This document shows positions 23,890 through 47,432 of a stretch of 64,000 nt of DNA, piece after piece. The position numbers and the translations under genes were made by a program. This DNA comes from an archaeon UBA543 (GTDB taxonomy: Archaea; Undinarchaeota; Undinarchaeia; Undinarchaeales; UBA543). The stretch spans positions 5,548 to 69,547 of the forward strand of contig DAPM01000017.1 of assembly GCA_002502135.1 (NCBI GenBank), in the 5' to 3' direction. Under the pieces are notes generated by a model, which had not been told where the DNA came from, ran no database searches, and worked only from the letters and a program-made list of their open reading frames with translations. Within the stretch, counting starts at the first letter, position 1, and each line of letters starts with the position of its first letter.

Positions 23890-23894
23890 CAAAA

Positions 23895-26118: not shown

Positions 26119-26119
26119 A

Positions 26120-30993: not shown

Positions 30994-32489
30994 ATACTGA
31001 AAAAAAATACAGCAAAATCTCTGGACAAGTAATCTTCTCAAACATCGTTTTAGTTCTAACAATCCTGATTTCTCCAGTTCTGATTGCGCTTCTTACAAGA
31101 GTTCTTAGTATTGCAGATTTTGGAGTTTATTCTCTTCTGACTTCTTTTGTAGCATTAATGTCACTGCTTCTGATTCTTGGATTGTCAAAATATATTATTG
31201 CCCGCTTGCCTGGAAAACAAAGAACTGAGCAAGCAACCAAATTCTATGCAATTGTAATTTTCAATGCAGTAATTGTTGCAGTTCTCTTACTTGTTGCATA
31301 CTTCAGTCCATTCAAACCATGGTTCTTAGGGATAACAAACCTGCAAGCATACAGCGCTGAATTTGGAATTTGTTTGTTTGTAATCTTTGCAATGGCAATG
31401 GGTAAGTTGTTTTTTGAATACTACAGTGCCAAAGAACGCCTAAATTTCGCAAATACAATGGATTTTTTAGTTAACAAGGGCTGGATGTTTATTCTTGTTG
31501 CAATTTTCCTGATTTTCAGAAGCTTCACCCTCTCTCAGGTGTTTATTGTTTGGCTTGTCGGAGTTGTGCTCGCTGTTTTAATCTATTCTCTCTGTTCACT
31601 CGGAGATATCAAAATATTCCTTAAAGAAAAATTCAATACTGCTGTGCTGAAACGAGCATTGTGGTTTGGGCTTCCGGTTATACCAGTTGTAATTTCTGGT
31701 TGGCTTATCTCACTTAGCGATCGATTTATTCTAAACCACTTTATGACTGCAGAAGCAGTAGGACTCTATACTCTTCCATATTCACTTCTTGGAGTTGTCA
31801 AAACTTTCGGAACATCTGCAAGTGTTGTAATTCTGCCTTATTTTGCAGCTGCATACAACAATAAGAATAAAGATTCTACAAAACTGATAAGTGCTGCAAT
31901 GAAATTCGGGCTTGTTCTAATTGTTCCTTTCTTGGTGGGCGCAGCAGTTCTTGGAAAGCAGATTATTCTGATAATTTCTGGAGCAAAATACCTTCCTGCA
32001 GTTCCATATCTTCTTCCACTTCTTCTCTATCCACTATTCTACTTCATGGCTTCAATTTTCTATGATGGTCTTGTTGTTGCTGGCCAGACAAAACATGCTG
32101 GAATCGCTTATACTGGCGCTGCAATTCTAAATATTATTCTAAATATCTGGTGGATTCCAAAAATAGGCATCTATGGAGCCGTTTTCTCAACAGTTCTTAG
32201 CTACTTGCTAATGTCTATTTACATGTATTCTGTGTTCAAAAAATACTGTAAAATCAGTCCAAGCTTTATAAAATTCGGGAGAATACTGATTGCTAGCATT
32301 ATCATGGGCATTCCTATTTACTTTATCAATCCTAGTGGACTTTTCATGACAGTAGCTACAACAGCACTCGGTGGAGCAATATATTGTATCCTTCTGCTTG
32401 TTTTCAAAGTAATTTCACATCACGAATTAAGATTATTCTTCAGCAAAGTGCCTGTAGTTCATAAAATTATTGATAAAATATTTGCTTAA
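30990..32489 (+). CDS. Wzx-like polysaccharide/oligosaccharide flippase (MOP superfamily)
   Basis: 499 aa with about 12-14 TM segments and a polysaccharide-biosynthesis-protein-like pattern. Confidence 0.7.
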   Translation: MNTEKKYSKISGQVIFSNIVLVLTILISPVLIALLTRVLSIADFGVYSLLTSFVALMSLLLILGLSKYIIARLPGKQRTEQATKFYAIVIFNAVIVAVLLLVAYFSPFKPWFLGITNLQAYSAEFGICLFVIFAMAMGKLFFEYYSAKERLNFANTMDFLVNKGWMFILVAIFLIFRSFTLSQVFIVWLVGVVLAVLIYSLCSLGDIKIFLKEKFNTAVLKRALWFGLPVIPVVISGWLISLSDRFILNHFMTAEAVGLYTLPYSLLGVVKTFGTSASVVILPYFAAAYNNKNKDSTKLISAAMKFGLVLIVPFLVGAAVLGKQIILIISGAKYLPAVPYLLPLLLYPLFYFMASIFYDGLVVAGQTKHAGIAYTGAAILNIILNIWWIPKIGIYGAVFSTVLSYLLMSIYMYSVFKKYCKISPSFIKFGRILIASIIMGIPIYFINPSGLFMTVATTALGGAIYCILLLVFKVISHHELRLFFSKVPVVHKIIDKIFA

Positions 32490-32986
32490 GCAGTTGGTTT
32501 TTCCAAAACCATCTCAACAGCAGGCCTGTCTTTGTGCGTAATATCTGTTTTTTCTGTGAATCCAAGCTTTTTGAAAACTGCAATTGAAATTGGATTGTCT
32601 GTTCTTATGTAGGTCTGGTATTTTTCAATTCCAAGACTGTCAAAACCATACTGGCAAGCAGTTCTTATTACTGCAGTTCCATATCCTTTACCTTGTTCTG
32701 GCTTGTCAATGTAAATTGCAATATCGGAAATACCTGAGTCAATGTCAAACCGTATTACACCCATTGGTGTTGACTCAGAATTCTCTATAATAAAAAATCT
32801 AGTTGTTTCAGAATCCACTCTGTTTGCAAACCATTTCTCATGGTTTTCAAACGGAATTTCATCTGCTTCAAAAGCTCTCTGTCGTGTTTCCGGATCATTT
32901 CGCCACCCCCACAACATTCTACTATCCTCTAGAGTTGCAGGTCGTGCCTTCAATTCCTTCTCTGCAATTTCGAAAACATACGCCAT
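32486..32986 (-). CDS. GNAT N-acetyltransferase
   Basis: 166 aa. PEQGKGYGTAVIRTACQYGFDSLGIEK is the acetyl-CoA-binding motif A. Confidence 0.75.
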   Translation of the reverse strand: MAYVFEIAEKELKARPATLEDSRMLWGWRNDPETRQRAFEADEIPFENHEKWFANRVDSETTRFFIIENSESTPMGVIRFDIDSGISDIAIYIDKPEQGKGYGTAVIRTACQYGFDSLGIEKYQTYIRTDNPISIAVFKKLGFTEKTDITHKDRPAVEMVLEKPTA

Positions 32987-33059: not shown

Positions 33060-34091
33060 GTGTGTTTTAATAACATGGCACGATTTTCACACGAAATTGG
33101 ACAGTCTTTTAGGTCTCTGCTGACATCTAGAGGCAAAGGCCTAGATTGGGCTTACAGGAAGTATCGCTACTTATGGAAGCGTGCACCTGCGAAGCAGAAA
33201 GTGCTGAAATTCCCACTTCACTTGGATATTGAAAACACCAACAACTGCAATCTTCGCTGTGTAATGTGCGCTATTAATTTTGCTGAAGAGGCTTTCGGAT
33301 CAATGGATTGGAACCTCTACACAAAGATTATTGACGAGGGTGCAAAGAACGGACTGGCATCTATCAAGCTCAACTGGCGCGGAGAACCACTTCTTCATCC
33401 AAAAATTGTTGAAATGGTGAAATATGCAAAAGATAAGGGAATTGTTGAAGTGCAGTTCAACACCAATGCTCAGCTTTTAACAGAAGACTTATCTCGCAGA
33501 TTAATTGACGCAGGTCTGGACAGGATTATTTTCTCAGTAGACGGAGCTACAACCGAAACTTACGAGAAAATAAGACGTGGCGGTAAATACGACAGACTTG
33601 TTAATAATATTGAAACTTTCCTAAGACTCAAAAAAGAAAAAGGAACCAAACTTCCTCTTACAAGAATACAATTTGTGAAAATGAAAGAGAACGAGAACGA
33701 AGCTGACTTGTTCAAGAAAACTTGGGATGGGAAAATTGATGAAGTGATTGTTAATCCATTCCTTGATTACACTTCCCTCAGCGACACAGCTGAGAAACAG
33801 GACAATCTAAAATCTTCCGACCAAATTAAAATAACTGGAAGAAAGCCATGTAACCAGCTTTGGCAGAGATTAATAATCAGTTATGATGGTGAAGTGATGA
33901 TGTGTTGTGATGACTGGAACATGGAAGTTAAACTCGGAAATGTTAATAATCAGAATATTTACGATATCTGGCATGGTGAAAAGCTGAACAAAATCCGCAA
34001 GCTTCATGCAACTGGCCAATGGGACAATATTCCTGTTTGCAAAAACTGTACAGAACTTGACGGATGTACTTACGAGAAAAATGAAAATTAG
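33060..34091 (+). CDS. Radical SAM enzyme with C-terminal SPASM domain
   Basis: 343 aa. NTNNCNLRCVMCA (CxxxCxxC), then C-terminal CNQLW...MMCCDDW...CKNCTELDGC auxiliary-cluster cysteines. Confidence 0.75.
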   Translation: MCFNNMARFSHEIGQSFRSLLTSRGKGLDWAYRKYRYLWKRAPAKQKVLKFPLHLDIENTNNCNLRCVMCAINFAEEAFGSMDWNLYTKIIDEGAKNGLASIKLNWRGEPLLHPKIVEMVKYAKDKGIVEVQFNTNAQLLTEDLSRRLIDAGLDRIIFSVDGATTETYEKIRRGGKYDRLVNNIETFLRLKKEKGTKLPLTRIQFVKMKENENEADLFKKTWDGKIDEVIVNPFLDYTSLSDTAEKQDNLKSSDQIKITGRKPCNQLWQRLIISYDGEVMMCCDDWNMEVKLGNVNNQNIYDIWHGEKLNKIRKLHATGQWDNIPVCKNCTELDGCTYEKNEN

Positions 34092-35395: not shown

Positions 35396-36346
35396 TCAGA
35401 TTCCCTGCATATCAGGCTCAACATACTTGTCTAAATTCTCTTTGTAATAATCTATAACAGCTTTCAAACCGTCTTCAATAGTCCATTTTGGTTCGTATCC
35501 AAGTTTTTCCTGTGCTTTTTTAATCTCAGGAACTCTCTTGAACACTTCCCGCCACTTTCCACGGATCTTATCACCGAATTCCACGTGCTCAATCTTGCTC
35601 TGGCTTCCAGAAATCTCCACAATCTTTTGTGCAAGCTGTTCCATGCTGACTTCTCCTCCAGGGTTTCCAATATTGAAAATTTCGTTTTTTGCTTTCTCTT
35701 CAAAAATACCTTTGCAAATTCCCTGAACAATATCATCAACATAACAGAATGCTCTTGTTTGCTGGCCATCTCCGAAAAGTTTCAGTGTCTCATTCTTGAG
35801 GGCTGCTGTTATGAATAATGGAACAACAAACTCATTTCTCTGTTCTCCATAAACATTGAAGAATCGTAGAATTGTATAATCTAAATTGTATTTCTTGCTG
35901 TAAGCTTTGATATATTCCTCGCCAATAACCTTACTTGCACCGTATTCTGATTTTGGTGAATAGTCTGCAGTTTCCAGGATAGGTAGTTCTCTAGGCTCAC
36001 CATAAATTTCTGAAGAACTTGAGAAAACAAATCTCTTGATATCGTTTTTGACACTTGCTTCCAACATATTTCTTGTGCCGAGAACATTAACGTCAAGACA
36101 TTCAAGAGGTGCTTTCAGTGATCTGTCTACACCAACAGTAGCTGCTAAGTGAACAACATATTCACAGCCGTCCATGGCCTTGTCAATATCCATTGGGCTC
36201 AAAATTGTACCCTGGATATAATTAGTGCCTTCAATCTTAACATCGTGAATGTCAAGCATGTTGACTTCGTGGCCGTCCTTGACGAGTTTCTCGACAAGCG
36301 CGGCTCCTACCATTCCTGATCCTCCTGTAACTAAAATTTTTACCAT
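35396..36346 (-). CDS. NAD-dependent nucleotide-sugar epimerase/dehydratase
   Basis: 316 aa. ILVTGGSGMVGAAL and YGASKVIGE. Confidence 0.8.
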   Translation of the reverse strand: MVKILVTGGSGMVGAALVEKLVKDGHEVNMLDIHDVKIEGTNYIQGTILSPMDIDKAMDGCEYVVHLAATVGVDRSLKAPLECLDVNVLGTRNMLEASVKNDIKRFVFSSSSEIYGEPRELPILETADYSPKSEYGASKVIGEEYIKAYSKKYNLDYTILRFFNVYGEQRNEFVVPLFITAALKNETLKLFGDGQQTRAFCYVDDIVQGICKGIFEEKAKNEIFNIGNPGGEVSMEQLAQKIVEISGSQSKIEHVEFGDKIRGKWREVFKRVPEIKKAQEKLGYEPKWTIEDGLKAVIDYYKENLDKYVEPDMQGI

Positions 36347-36347: not shown

Positions 36348-37028
36348 TTAATAGCTCCTCATGTCTTCGATAATTTTACCGTGTTTTTCCAAAAGGTACT
36401 TTTTCGCTTCTTCAACCTTTGTTTTATCCCCGGTTATGCTATCAGGTCTCCTGTTATAGGTAAATAAAGGTTCTGAAACATGGATACTCGTGCATTTTTC
36501 CTGGGCTTTTATGATAATGTCGTACTCTGGAAGCACAATAGCTTCATCATATGGGCCTGCGTCTTGTAAAACACTTTTTTTGTACAAAATACCGCCTGCA
36601 ATTGTGTCCATTAGGTTATCAACAGTGACAGTTTTCACTTCCTCTCTTGTTTTCTCAAAATAATCACAATAAGAGAATCCCAAATCAGGATCTGTTTCAA
36701 ATGGTTTGTATAATTTCTCTAATGCAGTTGGTTCCAACCAATCGTCAGAGTCCAGAATTATGATAAAGTCGCCTGTTGCAGTATCAATTCCCTGATTCAA
36801 GGCTTTGATAGCACCCAAATGCGCATTTTTGATAACTACAACATTCCCTTGTGCGTTTGCAAAGGTGTCTAGAAGCTCTTGGGTGTTATCTGTAGAACCA
36901 TCATCAACACAAATCAATTCAATTTGCTCTTTTGTCAGAGTTTGTGCTGCCACGCTATCTAGTGCTTTCTGAACAAAAGCTGAACTATTGTAAGTTCTTA
37001 GAATGATGCTAATTTTTCCTAATTCCAT
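36348..37028 (-). CDS. Family-2 glycosyltransferase (short)
   Basis: 226 aa. ISIILRTYNSSAFV...VDDGSTD...LDSDD. Confidence 0.7.
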   Translation of the reverse strand: MELGKISIILRTYNSSAFVQKALDSVAAQTLTKEQIELICVDDGSTDNTQELLDTFANAQGNVVVIKNAHLGAIKALNQGIDTATGDFIIILDSDDWLEPTALEKLYKPFETDPDLGFSYCDYFEKTREEVKTVTVDNLMDTIAGGILYKKSVLQDAGPYDEAIVLPEYDIIIKAQEKCTSIHVSEPLFTYNRRPDSITGDKTKVEEAKKYLLEKHGKIIEDMRSY

Positions 37029-37759
37029 GTTCGTGCTGTACCTGCTGGTATATTTTCATTCAAAGCCTTAATTTCTGGATTTGCATCAAGCCATTTCAAA
37101 ACATCTTTCAGCTTGACAAAATTACCATCCTGAACCAAAGCATCGTAACTTCGCCTTGCAACAATCAAATCTTCTGGATTATCAACTGTCAGTCTGACTT
37201 CAGGTCGTCTTAATTCCTCATCTACTTGCTGCATCTGAATCTTGAATTTGTCAGGATTCTCATTAATGTAAAGTGAGATCAGTTCGCTCCTGTGTTTGTC
37301 CTCGCCATCTTGGTGTGATTTCCTAAGTGCATCCATTGTTATAATTTCCACGTGAGTTCCTACTGGAATATTCTCGCAAACTGCAAGAGATGCTTTCTCA
37401 TCCAAAAGTTTCTGATACATCTCATCAACTTTTTCAACATAAATGTAAGGGTTCTCAGTAGTGCTTCTCAGAATAACATCAGCTTCAACCAAGTCTCCGC
37501 CTTTTATCAGTCGTCCAAGAACATCTTTCTCATTTCCATAAACATAAGGAATGTTGTGTTCTTTTGCTAGAAGTTCGAAATGAACATTCTCCTGACCTTC
37601 GCTAATTGCAAAAACAATTTCATCAATTGATTTACATTGCTCTCTGATCCTGTCAACAACATGCATAACTATTGGCTTTCCGCCAACAAGCTGTAACGGC
37701 TTAGCATAAAGTCGTGTTGATTTATTTCTGCAAGCTAATACTGCAACAAATTTTGTCAT
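37019..37759 (-). CDS. Acylneuraminate/pseudaminate-type cytidylyltransferase (CTP_transf_3, NeuA/SpsF/PseF-like)
   Basis: 246 aa. VAVLACRNKSTRLYAKPL is the N-x-x-S-T-R-L nucleotide-binding motif of CMP-ulosonic acid synthetases. Confidence 0.65.
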   Translation of the reverse strand: MTKFVAVLACRNKSTRLYAKPLQLVGGKPIVMHVVDRIREQCKSIDEIVFAISEGQENVHFELLAKEHNIPYVYGNEKDVLGRLIKGGDLVEADVILRSTTENPYIYVEKVDEMYQKLLDEKASLAVCENIPVGTHVEIITMDALRKSHQDGEDKHRSELISLYINENPDKFKIQMQQVDEELRRPEVRLTVDNPEDLIVARRSYDALVQDGNFVKLKDVLKWLDANPEIKALNENIPAGTARTWN

Positions 37760-38790
37760 TTTAACATATCCTCCACAATAACTTCATTTTTTGGAACGTC
37801 CCTTGCTGCTGTTTTTCCAACAACTTCCTCTACTCGCAGGAAGGGCAAGTCTTTTTCAACTCTTTTGAGATGAATATCATCAATTTTAATTTCGTCTCCA
37901 GCTTTCAGGTCTTTCTGAGCTAGAATGTGCTTTCTTACAAGTTTTCTGTACTCTTTCTCGCCGTCATTCAGAACATATTCTTTGCTTCCCAAACTCTTCT
38001 CAACTCTTCGCACATATTCCACGAACTTTTTGAACTCATCAGGATTCAAGGATGACTGGTAATCCACTCCTTTCTGGCTTCTGTCCCAAGTAATGTGCTT
38101 TTCCATTATCACTGCATTCATTCCCATTGGCATAAGTGGATATGGAACTGCAAGCTCATCATCACCATCAAGATGTCCCGCATAACCTACAGGCAATCCG
38201 AACTTCTCTTGAATCATTCTAATCCGCTCAAGATTTGTGTCCTCTAATTTTGTAGGGAAGTTCTGGAACCCGTGCATGATTGCGATTTCAGTTGCTCCAT
38301 ATTCCTTTGCTTTAGCAACAGCGTACTCTGCATCATCTAAGCTTGCGCCACCAACGTAAAGGAACACTGGTTTTCCTGTTTCAGCAACTTTTTTGATTAA
38401 AATTGAGTTTGTAATATCTGAGGAATGGATTTCATAAGCATCCAGATTGAATTGTTCCATATCTGCAAGGCTGGTTTCGCCAAAAACATCTGCAAAGACC
38501 ATTAATCCAAGATCTTTTGCATATTCAACAAGTCCTTTCCATTCATCAATTGGCATTTCACACTTTTTCAGAATTTCATAATATGAATATCCCGGTACTG
38601 AAATCTCATCTGCAAGAATTCTTTGCACTTTGACTGCATTAGCTCCGCCATCTGCAGAAGCTTTAATTATCTTTTTGGCAATTTCCACATTCCCGTCATG
38701 AGCATTTGCCATTTCTGCAATAACAAGTGTGTTCCTGCTATTGAATTCCTCTCCTTTGATTGTTATTTTCGGATTGTACATTCTTCCCAC
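37756..38790 (-). CDS. N-acetylneuraminate / nonulosonic acid synthase (NeuB/PseI/LegI family)
   Basis: 344 aa. NeuB TIM-barrel (IAEMANAHDG...GANAVKVQ) plus a C-terminal SAF/antifreeze-like domain. Confidence 0.8.
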   Translation of the reverse strand: MGRMYNPKITIKGEEFNSRNTLVIAEMANAHDGNVEIAKKIIKASADGGANAVKVQRILADEISVPGYSYYEILKKCEMPIDEWKGLVEYAKDLGLMVFADVFGETSLADMEQFNLDAYEIHSSDITNSILIKKVAETGKPVFLYVGGASLDDAEYAVAKAKEYGATEIAIMHGFQNFPTKLEDTNLERIRMIQEKFGLPVGYAGHLDGDDELAVPYPLMPMGMNAVIMEKHITWDRSQKGVDYQSSLNPDEFKKFVEYVRRVEKSLGSKEYVLNDGEKEYRKLVRKHILAQKDLKAGDEIKIDDIHLKRVEKDLPFLRVEEVVGKTAARDVPKNEVIVEDMLK

Positions 38791-38841
38791 CTAATTACTA
38801 TGAATTTTGATTTTTGCTTTAAATTGTTTATGATTTTACTT

Positions 38842-40686
38842 TCACAGCATGTTTTCAATGATCTTTGCAACTTCTACTGCTGCTGGTTTTCCCTTCTGCT
38901 TTACATACTGTTTTGCAAGTTCTTTAGCTTCTTCCGTTTTTCCTGTTCTAAGTATTCTGTCAAGTGCCTCACTTAATTCTTGCCCTGTTTTAACAATTTC
39001 AACCATTCCTTCTTTCCTTTTCGGGAAACTTGAAAGCGGAGCATTCATTGTGTTAATATAAATCACTGGCTTGCCATAAGCCATTGCTTCAAGTGCTACA
39101 GTTGATTTTGTTGTTACAAGAGCTGTACAACCTGCAAGAAGTTCTAAAAGATGTTTTTTTGTCAGTATGTTATTACTCACCCCATGCTTTTTCAACAGAG
39201 TCTTGTAAAGTCGTTCACTTTCTGCAGGATGAGGTTTTGAAACCACTTGCAAATTCCTGTATTTCTTTATTGTGTTGTAGAAAATATCATATGGGTGATA
39301 TGATGCACTTTCGGGAACGCAAGTTCCTCCAAAAACAATTATTGGTCTTGTTCTGTCAAGCCCAAGTGCAGTTAGCACATTATTTACCTTTTCCATACTG
39401 AGCTCCTTATTCTCTTTTCCTTCTGGTTGACCAACTGCAAACAATCGAGTTCTACTCACACCACTTCTCACAAGAGTTTCTACTGAAGATTGACCATATA
39501 CTGCCATTCTATCTGCATTAACTGGAACTCCTTTTGGTCTTTGGTCAAGAAGACCGTACCGCATTACAAAAGTTTTCAAGTTCTTCTGTTTTGCAATTGC
39601 AAGCAGTGTGTTTGGATATCTGCTCCAGTCATCAACACCACACACAATCTCTGGTTTTTCAGTATCAAGAATTTTGTTGAACACTTCAATTCTGATTAAA
39701 GTTTCAATAAATCTCTCGTAGAACAGGAATGAAAATAGTTTTGAGCAAACCGGCCACAACCTGACTCCTTTGTACTCGAATTTTGTTTTGAAGTTTTCAT
39801 TTTTCTCCAATTTGTCCAGAATACCTTCTAGTTTTTTCTGCAAACCCTCAATTTTTCTTATAATTTCTTTGTCAGCATAGTCTTGGAATCGCTCATATCT
39901 TATTCCAGCTTTCTTGAATTCATCTGAAACTTCTTTTCTAGGATCAAGTCCAACACACACCCTGTCACAATTCTGCAATTCTCTAGCCCATGGCAGAACC
40001 TTGTCAGTTTCACAGTGATCGTAGAAGAACAGAGTCTTAGGATCTTTAGATTCTGTTGGTTTTGGGGTTCTATTCTTCAAGCCTTTCAAAATCTTGTCAG
40101 CATGTCGACCTGTGAACAATTTCACTCCTCGGTCTTTGTTCTCATTGATTTTTCCAATAACTTTCAAGCCCATTGACTTTGCAACAAGTGCAAACACTTT
40201 CTGGTGCATACTTGAATTATTGAAAATAACAACCTGCTCAATCTTTTCTTTTTTCAAAACTCTAAATGCCTCGTCAATTGTTTTTATAATTGGAACCAGA
40301 TAGAAGCGCCATACTTCTGCAACATTTAAATTCCAGAGCTTCAAGCCCCTGTACTTCATTATTGAATCAATTCCTGCAATTGTTGATTCCATTTCTCGCA
40401 TAAACTGATAAGTATTATTCCAAGTTTCGTCATCCAGGAACTGTTCTGTTACTTCTGAAAGGCAGATATGAATGATTTCCTGCCTCTCTAGTTCCTGACT
40501 TGTCATGTAGTCAAGAGCAATTATTGAAATATCCTTGTATTTTTTCTCCAGACTACTAAGTTTTTGGTGCAGTCTTTTGAACATTACATCACTTTCACAA
40601 TCCTTTACAAAATCATAAACACCCCGAAGTGGGTGCGAGAACGCCATTTTCTGAACATCAAGTATAACTGCAGTTTTTTTTATCAT
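38842..40686 (-). CDS. Large GT-B-like glycosyltransferase with a K-x-H-P motif (candidate CMP-ulosonic acid transferase)
   Basis: 614 aa. The C-terminal half PIIVFGGT...VVSKPHPAE...ALVTTKSTVALEAMAYGKPVI looks like a GT-B C-domain with an HP motif. Such motifs are seen in KpsC/KpsS-type and sialyltransferase families. Family placement is tentative. Confidence 0.4.
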   Translation of the reverse strand: MIKKTAVILDVQKMAFSHPLRGVYDFVKDCESDVMFKRLHQKLSSLEKKYKDISIIALDYMTSQELERQEIIHICLSEVTEQFLDDETWNNTYQFMREMESTIAGIDSIMKYRGLKLWNLNVAEVWRFYLVPIIKTIDEAFRVLKKEKIEQVVIFNNSSMHQKVFALVAKSMGLKVIGKINENKDRGVKLFTGRHADKILKGLKNRTPKPTESKDPKTLFFYDHCETDKVLPWARELQNCDRVCVGLDPRKEVSDEFKKAGIRYERFQDYADKEIIRKIEGLQKKLEGILDKLEKNENFKTKFEYKGVRLWPVCSKLFSFLFYERFIETLIRIEVFNKILDTEKPEIVCGVDDWSRYPNTLLAIAKQKNLKTFVMRYGLLDQRPKGVPVNADRMAVYGQSSVETLVRSGVSRTRLFAVGQPEGKENKELSMEKVNNVLTALGLDRTRPIIVFGGTCVPESASYHPYDIFYNTIKKYRNLQVVSKPHPAESERLYKTLLKKHGVSNNILTKKHLLELLAGCTALVTTKSTVALEAMAYGKPVIYINTMNAPLSSFPKRKEGMVEIVKTGQELSEALDRILRTGKTEEAKELAKQYVKQKGKPAAVEVAKIIENML

Positions 40687-41381
40687 TTCTTTTTCTTTAG
40701 GAAGTCACTTCTAACAGATCTGTGCTGCATAATGAAATATGCAAACCAATACAGGTTGCCTACAACAGCCAGGCCCCATAACACCAGGTAAAGCTGGTTT
40801 AGCAGAGCCCCAACAGCAATAATGTTAATGTGCCACTGCCTTGCATAGAAGAATAGATTGTACCATTTCCCAAACCCGCTAAATTTCTTTTTAACTACTT
40901 TGTGTGGGATTTGGTTCAAGGTATAAAATCTTGCTGTGACATAAAATACTGTGAAGAAGTAAAGGCTGGCAAGTCCGAGAATCCAGATGTGAGTTACTGG
41001 ATAAATTCTGTATGCGCCAATTGTAATTGCAATTATCAGAAGTGGATCGAGTATTAAGTCAAGTGCCGAATCAAGATATCCGCCGTAATAGCTGGATTCT
41101 TTCCTGCATCTTGCAAGTTCGCCATCACAAAGATCAAGAATGTATCCGAATTCAAGCAGAACAGCTCCCCAGATCAGACATTTCCAAACTCCTGTTGTGA
41201 AAAGAGCAGCTCCTGCCATGCAAAACAAGAAACCGATAACAGTAACCTGATTTCCAGTAAGCGAAGTATGATTGTAAAGGAATGGAGTTATCCTTCTTGA
41301 GATTTTCCTGTGAACCCAATGAGTTATTAACTGGTCATTCTCCCTGTCAGGAACATCTTTTGTAGTGATTTTCTTTTTCAT
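40683..41381 (-). CDS. CDP-alcohol phosphatidyltransferase-family membrane enzyme
   Basis: 232 aa. DLCDGELARCRKESSYYGGYLDSALDLILD matches the D-G-x2-A-R-x8-G-x3-D-x3-D signature. Confidence 0.75.
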   Translation of the reverse strand: MKKKITTKDVPDRENDQLITHWVHRKISRRITPFLYNHTSLTGNQVTVIGFLFCMAGAALFTTGVWKCLIWGAVLLEFGYILDLCDGELARCRKESSYYGGYLDSALDLILDPLLIIAITIGAYRIYPVTHIWILGLASLYFFTVFYVTARFYTLNQIPHKVVKKKFSGFGKWYNLFFYARQWHINIIAVGALLNQLYLVLWGLAVVGNLYWFAYFIMQHRSVRSDFLKKKK

Positions 41382-42097
41382 TTGAGTAGTTTAGGATAAA
41401 TTTCGTTTTTAGCTTTTTCCAAATCATCTGGAAAGTCGATTTCAATCCACGGAAGTTTGTCAGTTGGCACAATTTTTATTGGAAATCCTTTTTCTGCAAG
41501 ATTTGTCAGTGCTGAAGTGTCGTAATCCATGAATCTGCCTTCTGCAAGTAGTGATTCAATTTCTGGAATTAGTTTTTTCCAGCCTTCTGAACTGAATTTG
41601 ATAATTCCAGTCCATTCTCCGCCTGCTTGGTCAAGTGGAATTGCCTTACTGGATTCAATTAAGTGTCCTTTCTCATCCAATTTGACTTTCATTGACTCTT
41701 CATCAAAAACTTCAGTGTCTGTAACAAGAACAATATCTCCCTCAGCGTCAATCGCTTTTTTTATTAGCTCATCGTGGTAGAGCAGGTCGCTGTGCAAGTA
41801 AAGAAACGGCTCGTCTCCTACTGCTTCTTTTCCGAACCAGAGCGAAGCCATGTCATTTGTAGTTTCGTAAAATGGATTGAACAGGTGAGTTACAGAATCT
41901 CCAAGTTTCTCATGAATTTTCTCTTTTTTCCAGCCACTAACAATTGCAATATCTGTAATTCCGTGCTTTTTCAGATTTTCAAGAGTGAGATCGAGAAGTG
42001 TTTTTCCTTCAGCAACTTCTGTAAGGCATTTCGGAATCTCAGAATCATTCCCGTATAACCGGGTTCCGCGCCCTGCTGCAACAATTACTGCTTTCAT
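41378..42097 (-). CDS. Nucleotidyltransferase (NTP_transf_3-like; candidate phosphonate- or alcohol-phosphate cytidylyltransferase)
   Basis: 239 aa. The N-terminus is MKAVIVAAGRGTRL. It overlaps both neighbours by 4 nt, consistent with an operon. Confidence 0.7.
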   Translation of the reverse strand: MKAVIVAAGRGTRLYGNDSEIPKCLTEVAEGKTLLDLTLENLKKHGITDIAIVSGWKKEKIHEKLGDSVTHLFNPFYETTNDMASLWFGKEAVGDEPFLYLHSDLLYHDELIKKAIDAEGDIVLVTDTEVFDEESMKVKLDEKGHLIESSKAIPLDQAGGEWTGIIKFSSEGWKKLIPEIESLLAEGRFMDYDTSALTNLAEKGFPIKIVPTDKLPWIEIDFPDDLEKAKNEIYPKLLK

Positions 42098-43047
42098 TCT
42101 AGTATTTTCTTGAAAATGTTAATCAAGTCCTCCTTTGAAACTTCTTTTGGATTATTATCAAGATGCCTTTTGTCTGGGAACACAACTTCTGCAAGTTCTT
42201 CAGCTGTTCCTGTAATCTCCACATTTCCTAGTCCTGTTTCTGTAATAATGCTTTTAATCTCTTGTGAAAGCGCAGGATCTGTTCCATTAAAGTCCATTGC
42301 GTGCGGAAGAACAATTGCAATTGCCTCTCCATGTGGAATTCCCTGGTTTGAGAGTGGATAAGAGAGTGCATGCGCAAGAGTTGTTCCAGAATTGCCGAAA
42401 GCTTTTCCAGCAACCAGACTTGCGTAAGACATCTGCTCTTTTGCCAATTCGTCACCTTCAATTGCTTTCTTGAGATTAATTTTGATTATGTCAATTGCTT
42501 CTTTTGCCAGTGTCTTGGTTGTTTCATCACTCTTTTTTGATTCAGAACATTCAACTGCATGAGCTAGAGCATCAATTCCTGTGCAGGCTGCGAGCTTCTT
42601 CGGCATTGTAAATGTGAGCTCAGGATCCACTAGCGCAACATCAGGAAGAAGGTTTTCGTTTTTAATTCCCTTTTTCTTGCCTTCCACTTTCAGGACAGCA
42701 TCATGGGTTACTTCACTTCCAGTTCCTGCAGTTGTTGGGATCATAATTTTCTTTGCATTTAGCTCCATTGCAGCGTATTTTGCAACATCCAAAACAGACC
42801 CTCCACCTAGTCCAATAATTGTGTCAGCCCCAAGTGCTTTAACTTTCTCAACAGTTTCCATACTTGGTTCTGGTTCTACATCTGAGAAGATTTTGATTTC
42901 ACCTAGAAGTGTTTTGATTTTGTCAACTGGTCCGCGTGTTAGCATACCTTTAGAAGTAACTAGAAGAACAGCGCCTTCTGTAAATTCAGGCAGTTTGCTG
43001 ATTGCTCCTCTTTCGAATATTATGTGCTCCGGCAGTATCAATTCCAT
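42094..43047 (-). CDS. Iron-containing (group III) alcohol dehydrogenase superfamily; candidate phosphonoacetaldehyde reductase
   Basis: 317 aa. The GLGGGSVLDVAKYAA NAD-binding motif and the His-rich metal-site region (AHAVEC...) are present. Confidence 0.65.
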   Translation of the reverse strand: MELILPEHIIFERGAISKLPEFTEGAVLLVTSKGMLTRGPVDKIKTLLGEIKIFSDVEPEPSMETVEKVKALGADTIIGLGGGSVLDVAKYAAMELNAKKIMIPTTAGTGSEVTHDAVLKVEGKKKGIKNENLLPDVALVDPELTFTMPKKLAACTGIDALAHAVECSESKKSDETTKTLAKEAIDIIKINLKKAIEGDELAKEQMSYASLVAGKAFGNSGTTLAHALSYPLSNQGIPHGEAIAIVLPHAMDFNGTDPALSQEIKSIITETGLGNVEITGTAEELAEVVFPDKRHLDNNPKEVSKEDLINIFKKILE

Positions 43048-43152
43048 ACAAAACAGGTGTTTGAATTGGGTATTTTAAGGTTATGCAAGTTTATAGCACC
43101 GAATAGTTTATCACAACCTTAATAACCACTTTTCAGAACACAATTCTTACAA

Positions 43153-43629
43153 ATGGTTAATACAAGTGAGTTTCTCGCTAAACTTTCAGAACTTGGATAC
43201 AATTTCTACGCTGGAGTACCTTGCTCTATTTTCAAAACTCTAATCAGCCAGCTAGAATCTGGAGATAATTACACACCAGTTACTCGAGAGGATGAAGGTC
43301 TTGGATTATGCACAGGGGCTCAGCTAGCTGGAAAGAAGCCTGTAATGGTTATGCAGAATTCCGGTCTTGGAAATTCAATTAATGTTCTGTCTTCACTGCT
43401 TCTACTCTACAAAATCCCGACACTCATGCTGATCAGCTGGAGGGGCGAGACAAAAGAGGATGCTCCTGAGCATTGGGTAATGGGAGAATCAATGACTAAA
43501 CTGCTTGATTCAATTGGTGTTCCGTATTTTATTTTTGAAACACTTGAGGATATGGAAAAAGCTAATGCAAAACTGACTGAAACAAACCAGCCAGTTGCAG
43601 TTATTTTCAAAAAGGGGTCACTTGAATGA
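43153..43629 (+). CDS. Phosphonopyruvate (or sulfopyruvate) decarboxylase, alpha subunit (TPP enzyme, PYR domain)
   Basis: 158 aa. The pattern is like split Ppd/ComD N-terminal halves. Its stop overlaps the start of the beta subunit. Confidence 0.7.
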   Translation: MVNTSEFLAKLSELGYNFYAGVPCSIFKTLISQLESGDNYTPVTREDEGLGLCTGAQLAGKKPVMVMQNSGLGNSINVLSSLLLLYKIPTLMLISWRGETKEDAPEHWVMGESMTKLLDSIGVPYFIFETLEDMEKANAKLTETNQPVAVIFKKGSLE

Positions 43630-44174
43630 AAACACAAGAAGCAGTTGCAAAAATAGTATCTCTTTTGAAAGGGGATGAAGTTATTATTTCTGCTAATGGT
43701 TTTATTTCACGAGAACTTCACGACACTGGCGACAATGAGCGGAATTTCTATATGATTGGCTCAATGGGAATGGGTGCATCAATTGGAGCTGGAATTGCAC
43801 TGAATTCTCAAAAGAAAGTGGTTGTTCTGGATGGCGACGGGAATGTTCTGATGAATCTGGGTGCGCTGGCTACAATTGGCAATAAAAAACCTGAGAATTT
43901 CCTTCATATTGTAATTGACAATGGTGTTTACGAATCAACTGGCTCTCAGAAAACTGTTTCTGCAACAATTGAGCTGGAAAATGTTGCAAAATCAGCTGGA
44001 TACACTACTTGTGTTAAAGTTTCTAATCTTGAAGAACTGGAATCAGCAATTGTCAGCGAGTACACTGGTTCGGTTTTCATTCGAGTAATAGTTGAAGCAG
44101 GCAAAAGAGAAGTTGGCAGAGTGCAGGCAAGCCCGGAAGAAATTGCAAACCGGCTCAGAACTTACCTTCCATAA
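43626..44174 (+). CDS. Phosphonopyruvate (or sulfopyruvate) decarboxylase, beta subunit (TPP-binding)
   Basis: 182 aa. LDGDGNVLMNLGALATIG...IVIDNG is the G-D-G...N-N TPP-binding motif. Confidence 0.75.
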   Translation: MKTQEAVAKIVSLLKGDEVIISANGFISRELHDTGDNERNFYMIGSMGMGASIGAGIALNSQKKVVVLDGDGNVLMNLGALATIGNKKPENFLHIVIDNGVYESTGSQKTVSATIELENVAKSAGYTTCVKVSNLEELESAIVSEYTGSVFIRVIVEAGKREVGRVQASPEEIANRLRTYLP

Positions 44175-44207
44175 CTCTTTTAACCTAAAATCAGGACGTT
44201 CAATTCA

Positions 44208-45830
44208 ATGACCAAGGCTAAAAAGCTCAGAGAACTGTTTGAAAGCAAGGATCTTGTACGGATCGTTGGAGCTCACAATGGACTAACTGCAAAACTTGTA
44301 GAGCTGAACGGTTTTGATGGTGTATGGGCTTCTGGTTTAGAAGTTTCAGCATCCAACGCTGTTCCTGATGCTAATATTCTCACAATGTCTGATTATCTTG
44401 CAGCAGCAGCCAGCATGAATGATGCTACAAGCATTCCAGTTGTTGTGGACTGCGATACTGGATACGGCAATTCAATGAATGTAATCCGAATGGTGAAGAA
44501 ATTCGAGGATGCCGGAATTGCTGCTGTTTGCATGGAGGACAAGAAATTCCCAAAAACCAACAGTTTGCTTGAAGGCGGGAAACAGGAGCTGGCTCCAATT
44601 GCTGAGTTTGTTGGCAAGATAATGGCTGCTAAGAATGCTCAGGAGTCAGATGATTTTATGGTTATTGCTCGTGTTGAGGCTTTGATTGCTGGCTGGGGAC
44701 AGGAAGAAGCACTCAAAAGAGCTCGCGCTTATGCTGATGCAGGCGCTGATGCAATTTTTATTCACTCAAAAAAGTCTGATCCTAAAGAAATTGAGGATTT
44801 CCTCAAAGCTTGGGACAATTACAAACCAGTTGTGTTGGTTCCAACAAATTATCCTAGCTTCACAGAAGCTCAGATGAAGCAGTATGGTGTGAAACTTGTT
44901 ATTTATGCTAATCACGGAATCCGGACAATTGTAAAACACGTTAATGAAACTCTTGCAGAAATTAAGGAAAAAGGGATTACTGAAATTGATTCTAAAATCG
45001 CTAGCGTGAAAGACCTTTTTGCTTTGCAGGAAATGGATAAATTCAAGGAAGATCAGGACAAGTTTGTCAGAACAAAAGAATCTGTAAAAGCAATTATTCC
45101 AGCTGCTGGGGACAGAAGCGTTGAACCTAGTTTGAAAGAACTTCTACAGGACAGACCACTTACAATGATTGATGTTAATGGAAAGTCAATTCTGCAGAGA
45201 AGTGTTGAGAATCTGAAGCAGTGCGGTGTTGATGACATCAAAGTTATTGGCGGTTACAAGGCAGAGCATGTTGTTGCTGATGATATTAATCTAGTTGTGA
45301 ATGAGGCATATGCTGACGGGCATATTATGGATTCAATTTCAAAAGCTGGAGAGGAATATGCTGAAAAGAATCTGATAATCTACTCTGACATTATTTTCGA
45401 AACAGAAATTCTTGATAAATTGCTAAAAACTGACAAGGATATTACACTTGTAATTGACAGTTCTGTTAGAAAGTCTGAAGTCAGGTCTGATATTGATCTT
45501 GTAATTGCTGAAAAGCCTCCTTTGGACGGCGAGAGAGTGATTAATGTTAATAAAGAGAATAAAATTCTGAACATTGGAAAGGATTTGGACAGAGAGAAGG
45601 CAAAACACGAGTTTGTTGGAATAGTTCTGCTTTCAAAAATTGGAATGCAGAAGCTGATGCAGGTTTACAAGGATGCTGGAGATCAGAAAATGGGTCTCTG
45701 CACTGCGATTCAGAAGCTTATTGATTCTGGTGAGGCTGTTAATTCACTTGAAATCAGCAGAGGGTGGAGTGAAATTCACGATTTTGAAGATTATAAGAAA
45801 GTTTCTGAGATGTTGGCTACTGAAAATTAA
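44208..45830 (+). CDS. Phosphoenolpyruvate phosphomutase (PepM) fused to a C-terminal nucleotidyltransferase domain
   Basis: 540 aa. The N-terminal ~290 aa belong to the ICL/PEP-mutase superfamily and carry the PepM-diagnostic EDKKFPKTNS (EDKX5NS). The C-terminal ~230 aa are AIIPAAGDRS...IDVNGKSIL, an NTP-transferase fold. Confidence 0.85.
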   Translation: MTKAKKLRELFESKDLVRIVGAHNGLTAKLVELNGFDGVWASGLEVSASNAVPDANILTMSDYLAAAASMNDATSIPVVVDCDTGYGNSMNVIRMVKKFEDAGIAAVCMEDKKFPKTNSLLEGGKQELAPIAEFVGKIMAAKNAQESDDFMVIARVEALIAGWGQEEALKRARAYADAGADAIFIHSKKSDPKEIEDFLKAWDNYKPVVLVPTNYPSFTEAQMKQYGVKLVIYANHGIRTIVKHVNETLAEIKEKGITEIDSKIASVKDLFALQEMDKFKEDQDKFVRTKESVKAIIPAAGDRSVEPSLKELLQDRPLTMIDVNGKSILQRSVENLKQCGVDDIKVIGGYKAEHVVADDINLVVNEAYADGHIMDSISKAGEEYAEKNLIIYSDIIFETEILDKLLKTDKDITLVIDSSVRKSEVRSDIDLVIAEKPPLDGERVINVNKENKILNIGKDLDREKAKHEFVGIVLLSKIGMQKLMQVYKDAGDQKMGLCTAIQKLIDSGEAVNSLEISRGWSEIHDFEDYKKVSEMLATEN

Positions 45831-46972: not shown

Positions 46973-46973
46973 T

Positions 46974-47432
46974 TTAAAGTTTTGAAATTATGTCTGTTGT
47001 TGAATCACAATCAACTAACTTCAATATTTCCAGTCTTCCGCCATATTCTTCTAAAGCTTTTTTCTCAGGAACTTGTTCTGGGGTATAATCTCCGCCTTTA
47101 GCTTGGATTCCTGGTTTCAGCTCGCGGATAAGCTGTTCTGGAGTGTTTTCATCATAAATCACAACATAATCCACGCTTTCTAGGGAATCAAGCACTTCAG
47201 CTCGCTGATCCTGCTGAATTAATGGTCGTTTCTCACCTTTCAACTTTTTAACTGATGCATCGCTGTTCAGTCCAACAATCAGAACATCTCCGAGTTCTCT
47301 GGCTTCTTTCAAATAGCGAATATGACCAATATGCAGAATATCAAAACAACCATTAGTGAAAACTACTGTTTTCCCTGCTGTTTTCAGCTGGTCTACAGTC
47401 TGTTTTGCATCTTCTCTTGACAAAACACTCAT
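46974..47432 (-). CDS. D-beta-D-heptose-1-phosphate adenylyltransferase (HldE domain II / RfaE2-like)
   Basis: 152 aa. TNGCFDILHIGHIRYL...IVGLNSD...KGGDY...CDSTTDIISK is collinear with the E. coli HldE C-terminal domain. Confidence 0.8.
   Translation of the reverse strand: MSVLSREDAKQTVDQLKTAGKTVVFTNGCFDILHIGHIRYLKEARELGDVLIVGLNSDASVKKLKGEKRPLIQQDQRAEVLDSLESVDYVVIYDENTPEQLIRELKPGIQAKGGDYTPEQVPEKKALEEYGGRLEILKLVDCDSTTDIISKL

Follow-up and report, generated by a model that had tools for sequence, protein, structure and literature searches.

Divergent ulosonate genes, a GT-B transferase and a phosphonate pathway in a predicted glycan operon of an Undinarchaeota archaeon

Main finding

In the window, by which we mean the whole 64,000-nucleotide stretch of DNA from archaeon UBA543, an unusual CMP-ulosonate enzyme pair, a GT-B ulosonate transferase and a 2-hydroxyethylphosphonate pathway may together constitute one glycan operon, a reading drawn from sequence comparisons to which we give a probability of about one half. 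The kinds of genes involved are already known; their combination and the enzyme subfamilies are new, and the large transferase family is undescribed. The synthase would condense PEP with an aldose into a 3-deoxy-2-ulosonic acid, which the cytidylyltransferase would convert with CTP into a CMP-activated sugar resembling sialic acid, and the 614-aa GT-B protein would use this CMP-ulosonate as donor to place the sugar on a lipid-linked or protein-bound glycan. Beginning with PEP mutase, operon enzymes would lead from PEP to phosphonopyruvate and, in predicted further steps, to phosphonoacetaldehyde and 2-hydroxyethylphosphonate; the latter would be activated as a CMP conjugate and then transferred by the membrane CDP-alcohol phosphotransferase. 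The surface glycan probably carries both ulosonic acid and phosphonate.

Organization of the locus

The three ORFs singled out in an earlier note on this DNA were confirmed on the minus strand, and their interval is the middle part of a run of eight minus-strand genes, almost without gaps, extending from position 43047 down to 35396 (Table 1). The run is embedded in an island of ~50 kb in a DPANN archaeon with a tiny genome, and the AglB/STT3 paralogues, flippase and PMT_2 genes of the island point to protein glycosylation. ATGA overlaps are found at four junctions, namely, FeADH/NTP-transferase, NTP-transferase/CDP-alcohol phosphotransferase, CDP-alcohol phosphotransferase/GT-B and NeuB/cytidylyltransferase, whereas NeuB is separated from the 614-aa gene by a spacer of 51-60 nt; this spacer and the overlap of the GT-B start with the CDP-alcohol phosphotransferase stop had been missed earlier. 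The epimerase and GNAT genes previously noticed nearby do exist. The top NCBIfam models of the SDR protein are LegB and dTDP-glucose 4,6-dehydratase, both far under cut-off, and the GNAT protein reaches 64.5 bits with TIGR03585 PseH (cut-off 93.1). The short GT2 has a 56% identical orthologue at the equivalent position in L001/L009.

Table 1. Genes of the window discussed in the text
Feature	Position	Strand	Length (aa)	Matches and remarks
GNAT acetyltransferase, PseH-like	32486..32986	-		PF13302 66 bits
Radical SAM/SPASM protein	33060..34091	+	343	PF04055 + PF13186
SDR NAD-dependent sugar epimerase/dehydratase	35396..36346	-	316	PF01370 201 bits; last gene of the run
Short GT2 glycosyltransferase	36348..37028	-	226	PF00535 116.4 bits
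Divergent CTP_transf_3 cytidylyltransferase, predicted CMP-ulosonate synthetase	37019..37759	-	246	PF02348 53.6 bits (gathering score 22.6)
Divergent NeuB-family synthase + SAF domain	37756..38790	-	344 (from GTG)	PF03102 168.9 bits, PF08666 36.4 bits
Soluble GT-B transferase, unannotated family	38842..40686	-	614	K484-P-H486-P487-x-E489 and S528-T529-x3-E533-A534 motifs
CDP-alcohol phosphotransferase	40683..41381	-	232	PF01066 45.2 bits; about 6 TM segments
Nucleotidyltransferase	41378..42097	-	239	PF00483, PF12804; ATGA overlap at either end
Iron-containing alcohol dehydrogenase (Fe-ADH)	42094..43047	-	317	PF00465 + PF25137
Split phosphonopyruvate decarboxylase	43153..44174 (alpha 43153-43629, beta 43626-44174)	+		TIGR03297 Ppyr-DeCO2ase 119.5, 191.6 bits
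PEP mutase + C-terminal nucleotidyltransferase domain fusion	44208..45830	+	540	PF13714 202 bits, PF12804

A divergent synthase and its cytidylyltransferase

As had been proposed, the synthase is NeuB-like, with a TIM barrel and an SAF domain (AF2 model, pLDDT 95.8). Among its Foldseek matches are the NeuB of N. meningitidis (E 3.8e-29, TM 0.83) and the PseI of C. jejuni (TM 0.86-0.87). A start at ATG 38781 (341 aa) is more likely than one at the GTG, since this ATG is preceded by a GGTG at 9 nt and a database protein of 341 aa (P0154) is 100% identical. The synthase keeps E26, K54, Q56, H206, H232 and D243; E26 is one of its catalytic residues, kept along with D125, E230 and the metal-binding His pair. 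The subfamily signature consists of H122, D125, G174 and Q176. Three active-site residues are replaced in the clade, by K120E, S145Y and D205G (K129E, S154Y and D214G in NmNeuB numbering). We take NmNeuB K129, S154 and D214 to line the PEP site in the structure (Gunawan et al. 2005), so that, with these residues lost, PEP use by the clade is not assured. With scores of 212.7 against the NeuB equivalog cut-off of 399.65 and 203 against that of PseI (340.25), the synthase is classified as a separate, divergent subfamily, outside the Neu5Ac, Pse and Leg equivalogs.

The CTP_transf_3 cytidylyltransferase was likewise recognized correctly, the string N-K-S-T-R-L occupying residues 12-17. Its P-loop, R-x-x-S-T-R-L-x-x-K-P-L, aligns with that of KdsB, and the protein scores far under the KdsB equivalog cut-offs; the top PDB match is 6oew ('Cytidylyltransferase', 1e-8), and the N-terminal half of TIGR04321 spiro-SPASM is matched weakly. 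The NeuB stop overlaps the cytidylyltransferase start by 4 nt (A-ATG-A), making the previously suggested translational coupling plausible, and the two are fused in a single protein in 42 of 120 homologues. In L013, the partner of the NeuB homologue shares 75% identity with the cytidylyltransferase of the window; for the C-terminal domain of the fusion protein in L014 the figure is 47%. Such recurrence marks the synthase and cytidylyltransferase as a conserved functional two-enzyme unit. In L001, L013 and L014 the divergent pair is accompanied by a second, canonical NeuB, and the two are therefore not interchangeable.

A classical nonulosonate product (Neu5Ac, pseudaminic or legionaminic acid), with its precursor genes lying outside the window, is improbable. 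The fold, the structural matches and the kept catalytic and metal-binding residues would suit such a product, as would E134D, typical among archaeal synthases (PMC8208679), the PseH-like GNAT, the SDR dehydratase-like gene, and the full Leg-like set (Epimerase_2, PglD-like, WbuX/HisH/HisF, formyltransferase) at sister loci L001 and L010. However, apart from the sub-cut-off scores, the three substitutions and the coexistence with canonical NeuB, the 64-kb window contains no canonical NeuB, canonical CMP-NulO synthetase, Epimerase_2 (NeuC/LegG-type), DegT aminotransferase, PglD-like acetyltransferase or formyltransferase. A classical sialic, pseudaminic or legionaminic acid is thus unlikely; an unusual ulosonic acid, possibly non-aminated or phosphosugar-derived, is the more likely product, given the divergence of the subfamily and a window devoid of amino-sugar precursor genes. 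NulO pathway components have been predicted in fewer than 20% of the archaeal genomes surveyed (PMC6137143).

The phosphonate module

The module upstream of the GT-B gene, adjoining and translationally coupled to it, had escaped the earlier note. The 540-aa fusion protein is identified as a PEP mutase by the diagnostic EDKKFPKTNS motif (EDKxxxxxNS) at residue 110 and by a TIGR02320 score of 321.1 bits, above the equivalog cut-off of 319.55. The split decarboxylase also matches the sulfopyruvate decarboxylase alpha and beta models (144.9 and 189.3 bits), and it was assigned to phosphonopyruvate because it adjoins this bona fide PEP mutase. The Fe-ADH, which scores 145.7 bits with TIGR03405 Phn_Fe-ADH (PsrA), under the cut-off, and has 80% identical orthologues at the equivalent position in L001 and L010, is predicted to be a phosphonoacetaldehyde reductase yielding 2-hydroxyethylphosphonate. 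The nucleotidyltransferase has the cytidylyltransferase half of IPCT/DIPPS as its top NCBIfam model (66.9 bits); its predicted role is to turn the phosphonate, or else an alcohol phosphate, into an activated CMP/CDP derivative. The CDP-alcohol phosphotransferase carries a DLCDGELAR...GGYLDSALD motif, its top NCBIfam models being the DIPP synthase half of IPCT/DIPPS and archaetidylinositol-phosphate synthase. Synteny of the module is conserved in two Undinarchaeota MAGs at 74-92% identity. Three Undinarchaeota loci are orthologous here. All of them have this upstream module, but their downstream ulosonate genes differ: the window has the divergent pair alone, L010 the canonical kind alone, and L001 has both.

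The GT-B transferase family

The 614-aa protein belongs to a family of 725 cluster representatives (E<=1e-30). Its AF2 model has a GT-B fold (pLDDT 90.8, pTM 0.90), and no hydrophobic segment was found in the protein. The K-P-H-P string reported earlier is present (K484-P485-H486-P487), H486 and P487 being invariant and K484 nearly invariant in a 41-sequence family alignment. Fold model and motifs establish the protein as a soluble enzyme of the GT-B type that carries the H-P and S-T motifs for binding nucleotide phosphates. The H-P motif, previously read as a mark of CMP-ulosonic acid transferases, is not diagnostic, because UDP-GlcNAc 2-epimerases share the same region.

These epimerases, including the hydrolysing NeuC, make up the top 49 Foldseek PDB matches, followed by MshA, and the protein could in principle be an ordinary NDP-sugar GT-B enzyme (GT4/GT28-like), or an NDP-sugar 2-epimerase/hydrolase supplying the aldose of the synthase, rather than a CMP-dependent enzyme. 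We regard this as unlikely. PF00534 (27.7 bits) exceeds its gathering score, the best PDB profile matches are processive diacylglycerol glucosyltransferase (GT28, 1e-12) and then CapG, and a separate Epimerase_2 is missing from the window; moreover, the 30% identical relative in L003 follows NTP-transferase, 4,6-dehydratase and aminotransferase genes, a set for an NDP-4-amino-sugar. On the other hand, PF02350 reaches 25.7 bits against a gathering score of 30.6, and a separate full-length Epimerase_2 adjoins the GT-B relative in L002, L010 and L011. In the CapG alignment, where the epimerase reads HMEAG, the family has QHG and the window protein RYG, and the 'PEE' segment is gapped, so that E117 and E131, which we take to be the catalytic acids of WecB, are not conserved.

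By HMM comparison, the protein is closest to a NulO transferase family that has genetic support. The nearest named families, both matching the nucleotide-binding C-terminal domain only, are NF046086 (BFO_1060; Tannerella forsythia Pse/Leg transferase; 47.8 bits, cut-off 200) and TIGR04396 (53.7 bits, cut-off 125), which are matched by 41/41 (best 3e-35) and 40/41 (best 9e-33) family members, respectively. BFO_1060, from strain 92A2, corresponds to Tanf_01245, the knock-out of which leaves the O-glycan without terminal Pse (PMC5420450). GT-B relatives also lie within 10 kb of NeuB and CTP_transf_3 at seven loci (window, L001/L009, L010, L002, L006, L011, L012), with one clear exception, L003, where no NeuB was found within 10 kb. 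This homology and this family-wide association are our grounds for a CMP-ulosonate donor, and they keep the proposed ulosonate attachment by the 614-aa protein tenable. L003 speaks against it, as do the restriction of the two HMM matches to the C-terminal domain, far under cut-off, and the differing ulosonate genes of the three Undinarchaeota loci.

Translational coupling to the phosphonate module keeps a second role live, although we consider it the less probable one: a TagF/TagB-like phosphonyl transferase that would move the phosphonyl-alcohol of CMP-2-hydroxyethylphosphonate, possibly repeatedly, onto a sugar hydroxyl, leaving the ulosonate to another enzyme such as the GT2, which always follows the divergent pair in Undinarchaeota. 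Phosphonate genes precede the GT-B gene in 3/3 Undinarchaeota loci and represent the only donor pathway common to them. The recommended remote-homology search brought up a TagF-like polymerase, Cps3D, third among PDB profile matches (3.4e-9), while no GT38/52/80 structure was matched and KpsC appeared only at E 0.012. PF04464 Glyphos_transf scores 21.3 bits, just below its gathering score of 22.1, is a precomputed hit of P0004 and matches 30/41 family members (best 4e-18), and the TarB and TarF models match 7 and 3 members. Yet PF04464 matches fewer members than BFO_1060 or TIGR04396, and with a poorer best E-value. The TagF-family motifs YAPTWR and DYSS...D are absent, with VFGGTCVPES and TKSTVALEA in their places. 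Furthermore, phosphonate transfer is already served by a dedicated CDP-alcohol phosphotransferase, and at L002, L006, L011 and L012, with more distant relatives near NeuB and CTP_transf_3, no PEP mutase is in view.

The Radical SAM/SPASM protein, which scores 103 bits with TIGR04321 spiro-SPASM over the C-terminal half of that model, is a conserved companion of GT-B and NeuB genes at related loci: in L010/L005 a 44% identical orthologue comes immediately after the GT-B gene, and L002 has one with 35% identity.

Organization of the glycosylation locus

The three open reading frames that the earlier note had combined into a nonulosonic acid (NulO) module with its transferase were recovered where it had placed them, all on the minus strand. 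They sit centrally in a series of eight genes on that strand (see the table below). Overlaps of 4 nt (ATGA) chain the Fe-ADH, nucleotidyltransferase, CDP-alcohol phosphotransferase and GT-B genes, and the sole real spacer of the run is the gap of 51–60 nt between the GT-B and synthase genes, which contains TTTAAA and GGTG. The surrounding glycosylation island spans ~13.4 to 63.2 kb of the window. It encodes two AglB/STT3 paralogues, a flippase, PMT_2 proteins, several GT2s, a GT4-family phosphosugar transferase, DUF354, UDP-glucose dehydrogenase and two heptose gene sets. Close relatives of the GT-B gene were found in a single-protein locus scan on only two MAG contigs, both labelled Candidatus Undinarchaeota, and the phosphonate genes of both contigs are 74–92% identical to those of the window, which makes an Undinarchaeote the probable host. 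The locus is a predicted composite operon of a DPANN archaeon, directing synthesis of a surface glycan with ulosonate and phosphonate components. Whereas the kinds of genes are known, their combination, the host lineage and the subfamilies of both the synthase and the GT-B protein are uncharacterised.

Demonstrated cases of NulOs in Archaea are very few, and our literature search returned nothing linking them to DPANN archaea. A genome-reduced and probably host-dependent archaeon carries here ~50 kb for surface glycosylation, a PEP-mutase pathway included, suggesting a central role of the cell surface in its way of life.

Features of the predicted ulosonate–phosphonate locus and of the surrounding glycosylation island (window coordinates)
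Feature	Coordinates	Strand	Remarks
AglB/STT3 oligosaccharyltransferase paralogues	14153-16435, 16478-18697	+	in tandem
LPG_synthase_TM	18690-19652		follows the AglB/STT3 pair
HddC/MurU-like nucleotidyltransferase–B12-binding radical SAM fusion	19698-22013	+	771 aa
GHMP kinase, SIS, HAD phosphatase, transaldolase	22047-26773	+	GDP-heptose type
Radical SAM/SPASM	33060-34091	+
DUF4910/DUF2172/M28-peptidase-like	34006-35373	+	455 aa from first in-frame start
SDR epimerase/dehydratase	35396-36346	-	eighth gene of run
GT2	36348-37028	-	seventh gene of run
Cytidylyltransferase	37019-37759	-	246 aa; CTP_transf_3 (PF02348) 53.6 bits; N-K-S-T-R-L
NeuB-like synthase	37756-38790	-	NeuB (PF03102) 168.9 bits, then SAF (PF08666) 36.4 bits
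GT-B protein	38842-40686	-	614 aa; K484-P-H486-P487
CDP-alcohol phosphotransferase	40683-41381	-	DxxDGxxAR...GxxxDxxxD motif; ~6 hydrophobic segments
Stand-alone nucleotidyltransferase	41378-42097	-	second gene of run
Fe-ADH	42094-43047	-	first gene of run
Split phosphonopyruvate decarboxylase (Ppd)	43153-44174	+	divergent from Fe-ADH
PEP mutase fused to nucleotidyltransferase domain	44208-45830	+	540 aa; divergent from Fe-ADH
SIS, PfkB kinase, cytidylyltransferase-like protein, GT9 heptosyltransferase	45827-48888	-	ADP-heptose type
FemAB-like/GNAT (Acetyltransf_6) protein, WbmS-like putative deacetylase	49046-50855	-
Second LPG_synthase_TM	56702-57679

A divergent NeuB subfamily coupled to a cytidylyltransferase

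The proposed coupling of synthase and cytidylyltransferase is borne out by gene overlap and by fusions among homologues. In the synthase + CYTIDYLYLTRANSFERASE unit, ATGA is shared by the stop of the synthase gene and the start of the cytidylyltransferase gene, and 42 of the 120 best synthase homologues (36–69% identity) are single polypeptides with a fused CTP_transf_3 domain. The window cytidylyltransferase is 75% identical to the partner of the divergent-synthase homologue in L013, and it shares 47% identity with the domain fused to the synthase in L014. Together, the overlap, the fusions and the partner identities argue that the two proteins constitute one conserved functional unit. The probable synthase start is the ATG at 38781, with GGTG 9 nt upstream, and the database protein P0154 (341 aa) is identical.

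The predicted AF2 model of the synthase (pLDDT 95.8) has the NeuB/PseI fold. Foldseek matched it to Neisseria meningitidis NeuB (NmNeuB; E 3.8e-29, TM 0.83) and Campylobacter jejuni PseI (TM 0.86–0.87), with PDB matches 2wqp and 8h2c cited for TM 0.83–0.87. Like NeuB, PseI and LegI (PDB 1xuu, 8h2c), the protein combines a TIM barrel with an SAF domain and retains the metal-binding His pair H206 and H232 (NmNeuB H215, H236), the acids E26 and E230 (E25, E234) and an R314 equivalent. Unlike these enzymes, it belongs to a separate subfamily and reaches about half of the equivalog cut-offs, scoring 212.7 against 399.65 with the Neu5Ac model TIGR03569 and 203 against 340.25 with the pseudaminic acid model TIGR03586. 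NmNeuB E134 is an aspartate (D125) in the window, a substitution typical of archaeal and eukaryotic synthases and tied to phosphorylated substrates (PMC8208679).

The 120 homologues share a signature of their own, H122, D125, G174 and Q176, versus G, E, C and T/S in canonical enzymes. The window synthase and its three closest relatives (the clade of database proteins P0154–P0157) additionally have E120, Y145 and G205, corresponding to K129E, S154Y and D214G in NmNeuB. At these positions K, S and D are found in all four canonical references and in 85%, 74% and 93%, respectively, of the other subfamily matches, the three close relatives excluded. NmNeuB K129, S154 and D214 reportedly line the PEP site (Gunawan et al. 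2005); a literature search on the role of K129 gave no usable result. The co-occurrence of K120E, S145Y and D205G in the Undinarchaeota clade may reflect neofunctionalisation or loss of PEP use. A strict tie of this clade to phosphonate genes was rejected: the L013 synthase (51% identity) has E120, Y145 and G205, yet neither the 10 kb upstream nor the ~5 kb downstream encodes a PEP mutase.

In the cytidylyltransferase, R-N-K-S-T-R-L-Y-A-K-P-L aligns with R-Y-A-S-T-R-L-P-G-K-P-L of KdsB (KdsB-type R-x-x-S-T-R-L-x-x-K-P-L). The protein scores far under all equivalog cut-offs (34.8 versus 193 for the best KdsB model; 25.1 versus 155.2 for TIGR00466), and the canonical CMP synthetase of the sister locus L010 found no tblastn match in the window. 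Most likely, the unit makes a CMP-activated 3-deoxy-2-ulosonic acid. Synthase and cytidylyltransferase represent a divergent, often fused subfamily outside the established equivalogs.

While the reading frames, the coupled unit and the GT-B protein with its HP motif described in the earlier note stand, its suggestion of a sialic, pseudaminic or legionaminic acid product is not supported for the window, given the sub-threshold equivalog scores and the lack of precursor genes in the 64 kb. Specifically, tblastn of this region detected no Epimerase_2, DegT aminotransferase, PglD-like acetyltransferase, formyltransferase, canonical NeuB or canonical CMP-NulO synthetase. The sole candidate precursor gene encodes a PseH-like GNAT scoring under its cut-off. 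In L001, L013 and L014/15, a second NeuB, of canonical type and accompanied by amino-sugar genes, occurs next to the divergent unit, which is therefore not simply ‘the’ NulO synthase.

Two sister Undinarchaeota loci, L001 (10939-13522) and L010 (12889-20851), encode a WbuX amidotransferase (400 bits), HisH/HisF homologues, a formyltransferase and a PIG-L deacetylase, and further carry Epimerase_2, a PglD-like acetyltransferase, canonical NeuB and canonical CMP synthetase. This set, not present in the window, corresponds to a legionaminic-acid-like pathway in which acetamidino or formyl groups are added.

A phosphonate module next to the predicted ulosonate genes

A complete early phosphonate pathway (41378-45830) adjoins the three genes. 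The PEP mutase passes the TIGR02320 equivalog (321.1 versus a cut-off of 319.55), and EDKKFPKTNS at residue 110 corresponds to the diagnostic EDKxxxxxNS motif. Because the module has no accompanying aminotransferase, its predicted product is 2-hydroxyethylphosphonate (HEP). As in the early steps of fosfomycin biosynthesis (Fom1, Fom2, FomC), HEP would be produced by the fused PEP mutase–nucleotidyltransferase, the phosphonopyruvate decarboxylase and the Fe-ADH, and might then be activated as a CMP conjugate. Precedents for CMP activation of a phosphonate are Fom1 and PntC (PMC6697681), and by this analogy the module predicts CMP-HEP in a DPANN archaeon.

The sister loci L001 and L010 continue with a B12 radical SAM enzyme, as the fosfomycin pathway does with Fom3. 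Unlike in Fom1, the nucleotidyltransferase domain of the window PEP mutase is C-terminal rather than N-terminal. The window also differs from fosfomycin clusters in its archaeal host and in having no late fosfomycin genes; instead, a CDP-alcohol phosphotransferase and the GT-B enzyme follow, which indicates surface attachment and not a small-molecule product. Bacterial Pnt (PntC; PMC6697681), to which the module was also compared, is a system of cell-surface phosphonate tailoring. Our literature search found nothing linking phosphonates to NulOs.

An undescribed family of GT-B proteins

The K-P-H-P motif noticed earlier in the 614-aa protein does lie in a GT-B context: the AF2 model (pLDDT 90.8, pTM 0.90) has a GT-B fold with extra N-terminal alpha/beta elements. 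The protein contains no hydrophobic segment and has no sequence match among PDB entries. A word-index search returned four homologues only; the profile search of the family yielded 11,530 cluster representatives, including 725 at E≤1e-30, with lengths mostly of 600–670 aa. In an alignment of 41 sequences, G419, H486, P487 and S528 are invariant, and K484, T529, E533, A534, K539 and N545 nearly so.

In the Foldseek search of the model against the PDB, UDP-GlcNAc 2-epimerases ranked first (E 1e-14, TM to target ≤0.66), raising the possibility of an epimerase. The catalytic positions are not conserved: in the alignment with the epimerase CapG, HMEAG is replaced by QHG/RYG in the family and the window protein, and the PEE segment is gapped. 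These two segments presumably hold the epimerase catalytic acids. PF02350 (UDP-GlcNAc 2-epimerase) reaches 25.7 bits versus a gathering threshold of 30.6, and separate Epimerase_2 genes accompany GT-B relatives in L002, L010 and L011. The changes in both segments and the presence of these separate genes make an epimerase role unlikely, and we rejected it.

Compared with PDB sequences, the family profile matched GT28 diacylglycerol glucosyltransferase (1e-12), CapG (3e-10) and the TagF-like polymerase Cps3D (3.4e-9); KpsC appeared only at 0.012, and GT38, GT52 and GT80 gave no match. The most specific relationship by sequence is that to NF046086 (BFO_1060 family; matches to all 41 family members, best 3e-35) and TIGR04396 (matches to 40 of them). 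On the window protein, both matches are confined to the nucleotide-binding domain (residues 467–613) and lie well under the cut-offs; for NF046086, the match covers residues 467–592 (E 1e-12, 47.8 bits versus a cut-off of 200). By these scores the window protein is classed as a relative, not a member, of the BFO_1060 family. Its own GT-B family is undescribed and, although related to the known family of NulO transferases, lies outside it. A literature search on TIGR04396 gave no usable result.

In strain 92A2, the counterpart of Tanf_01245 is BFO_1060. When Tanf_01245 is deleted, the Tannerella O-glycan loses its terminal pseudaminic acid derivative (PMC5420450). As in Tannerella forsythia Tanf_01245 and TFUB4_00887, the C-terminal GT-B domain of the window protein has an HP motif, and genes of the family adjoin NeuB-type and CMP-synthetase genes. 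The Tannerella proteins are ~445 aa long, versus 614 aa here, with an extra N-terminal region of ~210 residues and an unrelated acceptor domain. Furthermore, the window protein is archaeal and its gene is coupled to phosphonate genes. NulO transferases are poorly known (PMC5420450), so that a new candidate family should be useful for glycoengineering and annotation. The analysis defines two uncharacterised enzyme groups, namely, the ~600-aa GT-B family linked to NeuB genes and the NeuB subfamily often fused to a cytidylyltransferase.

Candidate donors of the GT-B protein

NeuB and CTP_transf_3 genes were both found within 10 kb of the GT-B gene or its relative at seven loci (the window; the sister loci L001/L009 and L010; and L002, L006, L011 and L012, which carry more distant relatives), in a count that leaves out three contigs too short to judge. 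In L002, the cytidylyltransferase gene is next to the GT-B relative, and L011 has a full legionaminic-acid-like set. The one clear negative is L003, where the 10-kb flanks on either side contain no NeuB plus CTP_transf_3. NulO pathway components are predicted in fewer than 20% of surveyed archaeal genomes (PMC6137143), and with this published survey as the yardstick we read the association as enriched. The association supports CMP-ulosonate as the donor, a prediction to which we assign a probability of about 0.5.

The main alternative is that the protein is a TagF-like transferase using CMP-HEP to transfer a phosphonyl group. At the three orthologous Undinarchaeota loci, the GT-B gene is in each case preceded by the phosphonate genes and the CDP-alcohol phosphotransferase. 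The genes 3′ of it vary: the window has the divergent NeuB, L001 has WbuX/HisH/HisF, and L010 has radical SAM/SPASM with a canonical legionaminic-acid-like set. The phosphonate pathway is the sole donor pathway common to the three. The genes upstream of the GT-B gene (PEP mutase–NTP-transferase, Ppd, Fe-ADH, NTP-transferase) are predicted to form a pathway to a cytidylyl-activated alcohol phosph(on)ate donor. Moreover, PF04464 (TagF family) scores 21.3 bits on the protein, 0.8 bit short of its gathering threshold of 22.1. TagF/TagB and Cps3D (PDB 8qoy) share the GT-B fold and a His at the matching motif position, and the CMP-releasing chemistry of TagF/TagB would suit a CMP-phosphonate donor. 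The constant phosphonate pathway, the variable 3′ genes and the near-threshold PF04464 score make this alternative a serious one. However, the TagF motifs are not kept in the Cps3D alignment (YAPTWR is replaced by VFGGTCVPES and DYSS...D by TKSTVALEA), and the neighbourhood across the whole family favours NeuB, not polyol-phosphate genes. We consider a TagF-like activity the less likely of the two, and CMP-ulosonate remains our preferred donor.

More speculatively, and with a still lower probability than the TagF-like activity, the ~600-aa proteins could be a mainly archaeal new family of CMP-dependent transferases that in Undinarchaeota join an unusual ulosonic acid and HEP within a single surface structure, as a phosphonylated ulosonic-acid cap or a teichoic-acid-like C–P repeat. 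If so, the synthase clade with K129E, S154Y and D214G would have acquired a substrate different from the usual PEP/hexosamine pair, and no earlier phosphonoglycan chemistry would have been described in DPANN archaea.

Other genes of the island

The window cytidylyltransferase matches the N-terminal half of the spiro-SPASM model TIGR04321 and the radical SAM/SPASM protein the C-terminal half. Unlike in the fusion, the two halves of this split spiro-SPASM are encoded apart, on opposite strands and at a distance of 3 kb. Orthologues of the radical SAM/SPASM gene directly follow the GT-B gene in L010/L005 and lie inside the NeuB cluster of L002. The DUF4910/DUF2172/M28-peptidase-like gene overlaps the end of the window copy by 86 nt, and its product has no NCBIfam match.

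The best NCBIfam match of the 771-aa fusion is to ‘Sden_1168 family P-methyltransferase’ (304.6 bits, under the cut-off of 575). Its gene adjoins those for GHMP kinase, SIS and HAD proteins, and it could perform a second phosphonate/phosphinate tailoring step or C-methylate an NDP-heptose. B12-binding radical SAM genes also adjoin the GT-B relatives of ~30% identity in L003, L006, L007 and L008, and one lies ~7.5 kb downstream in L011. Orthology of these genes with the Fom3-like genes of L001 and L010 was rejected at only 22–28% identity; the copies of L003, L006 and L007 are 39–44% identical to each other.

Two heptose-type gene sets are unusual for an archaeon with a reduced genome. LPG_synthase_TM genes, present twice in the window, occur with GT-B relatives in L002 and L007 as well. 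A FemAB-like gene also occurs in L011, immediately behind the GT-B relative, a hint that the glycan may bear aminoacyl or peptide decoration.
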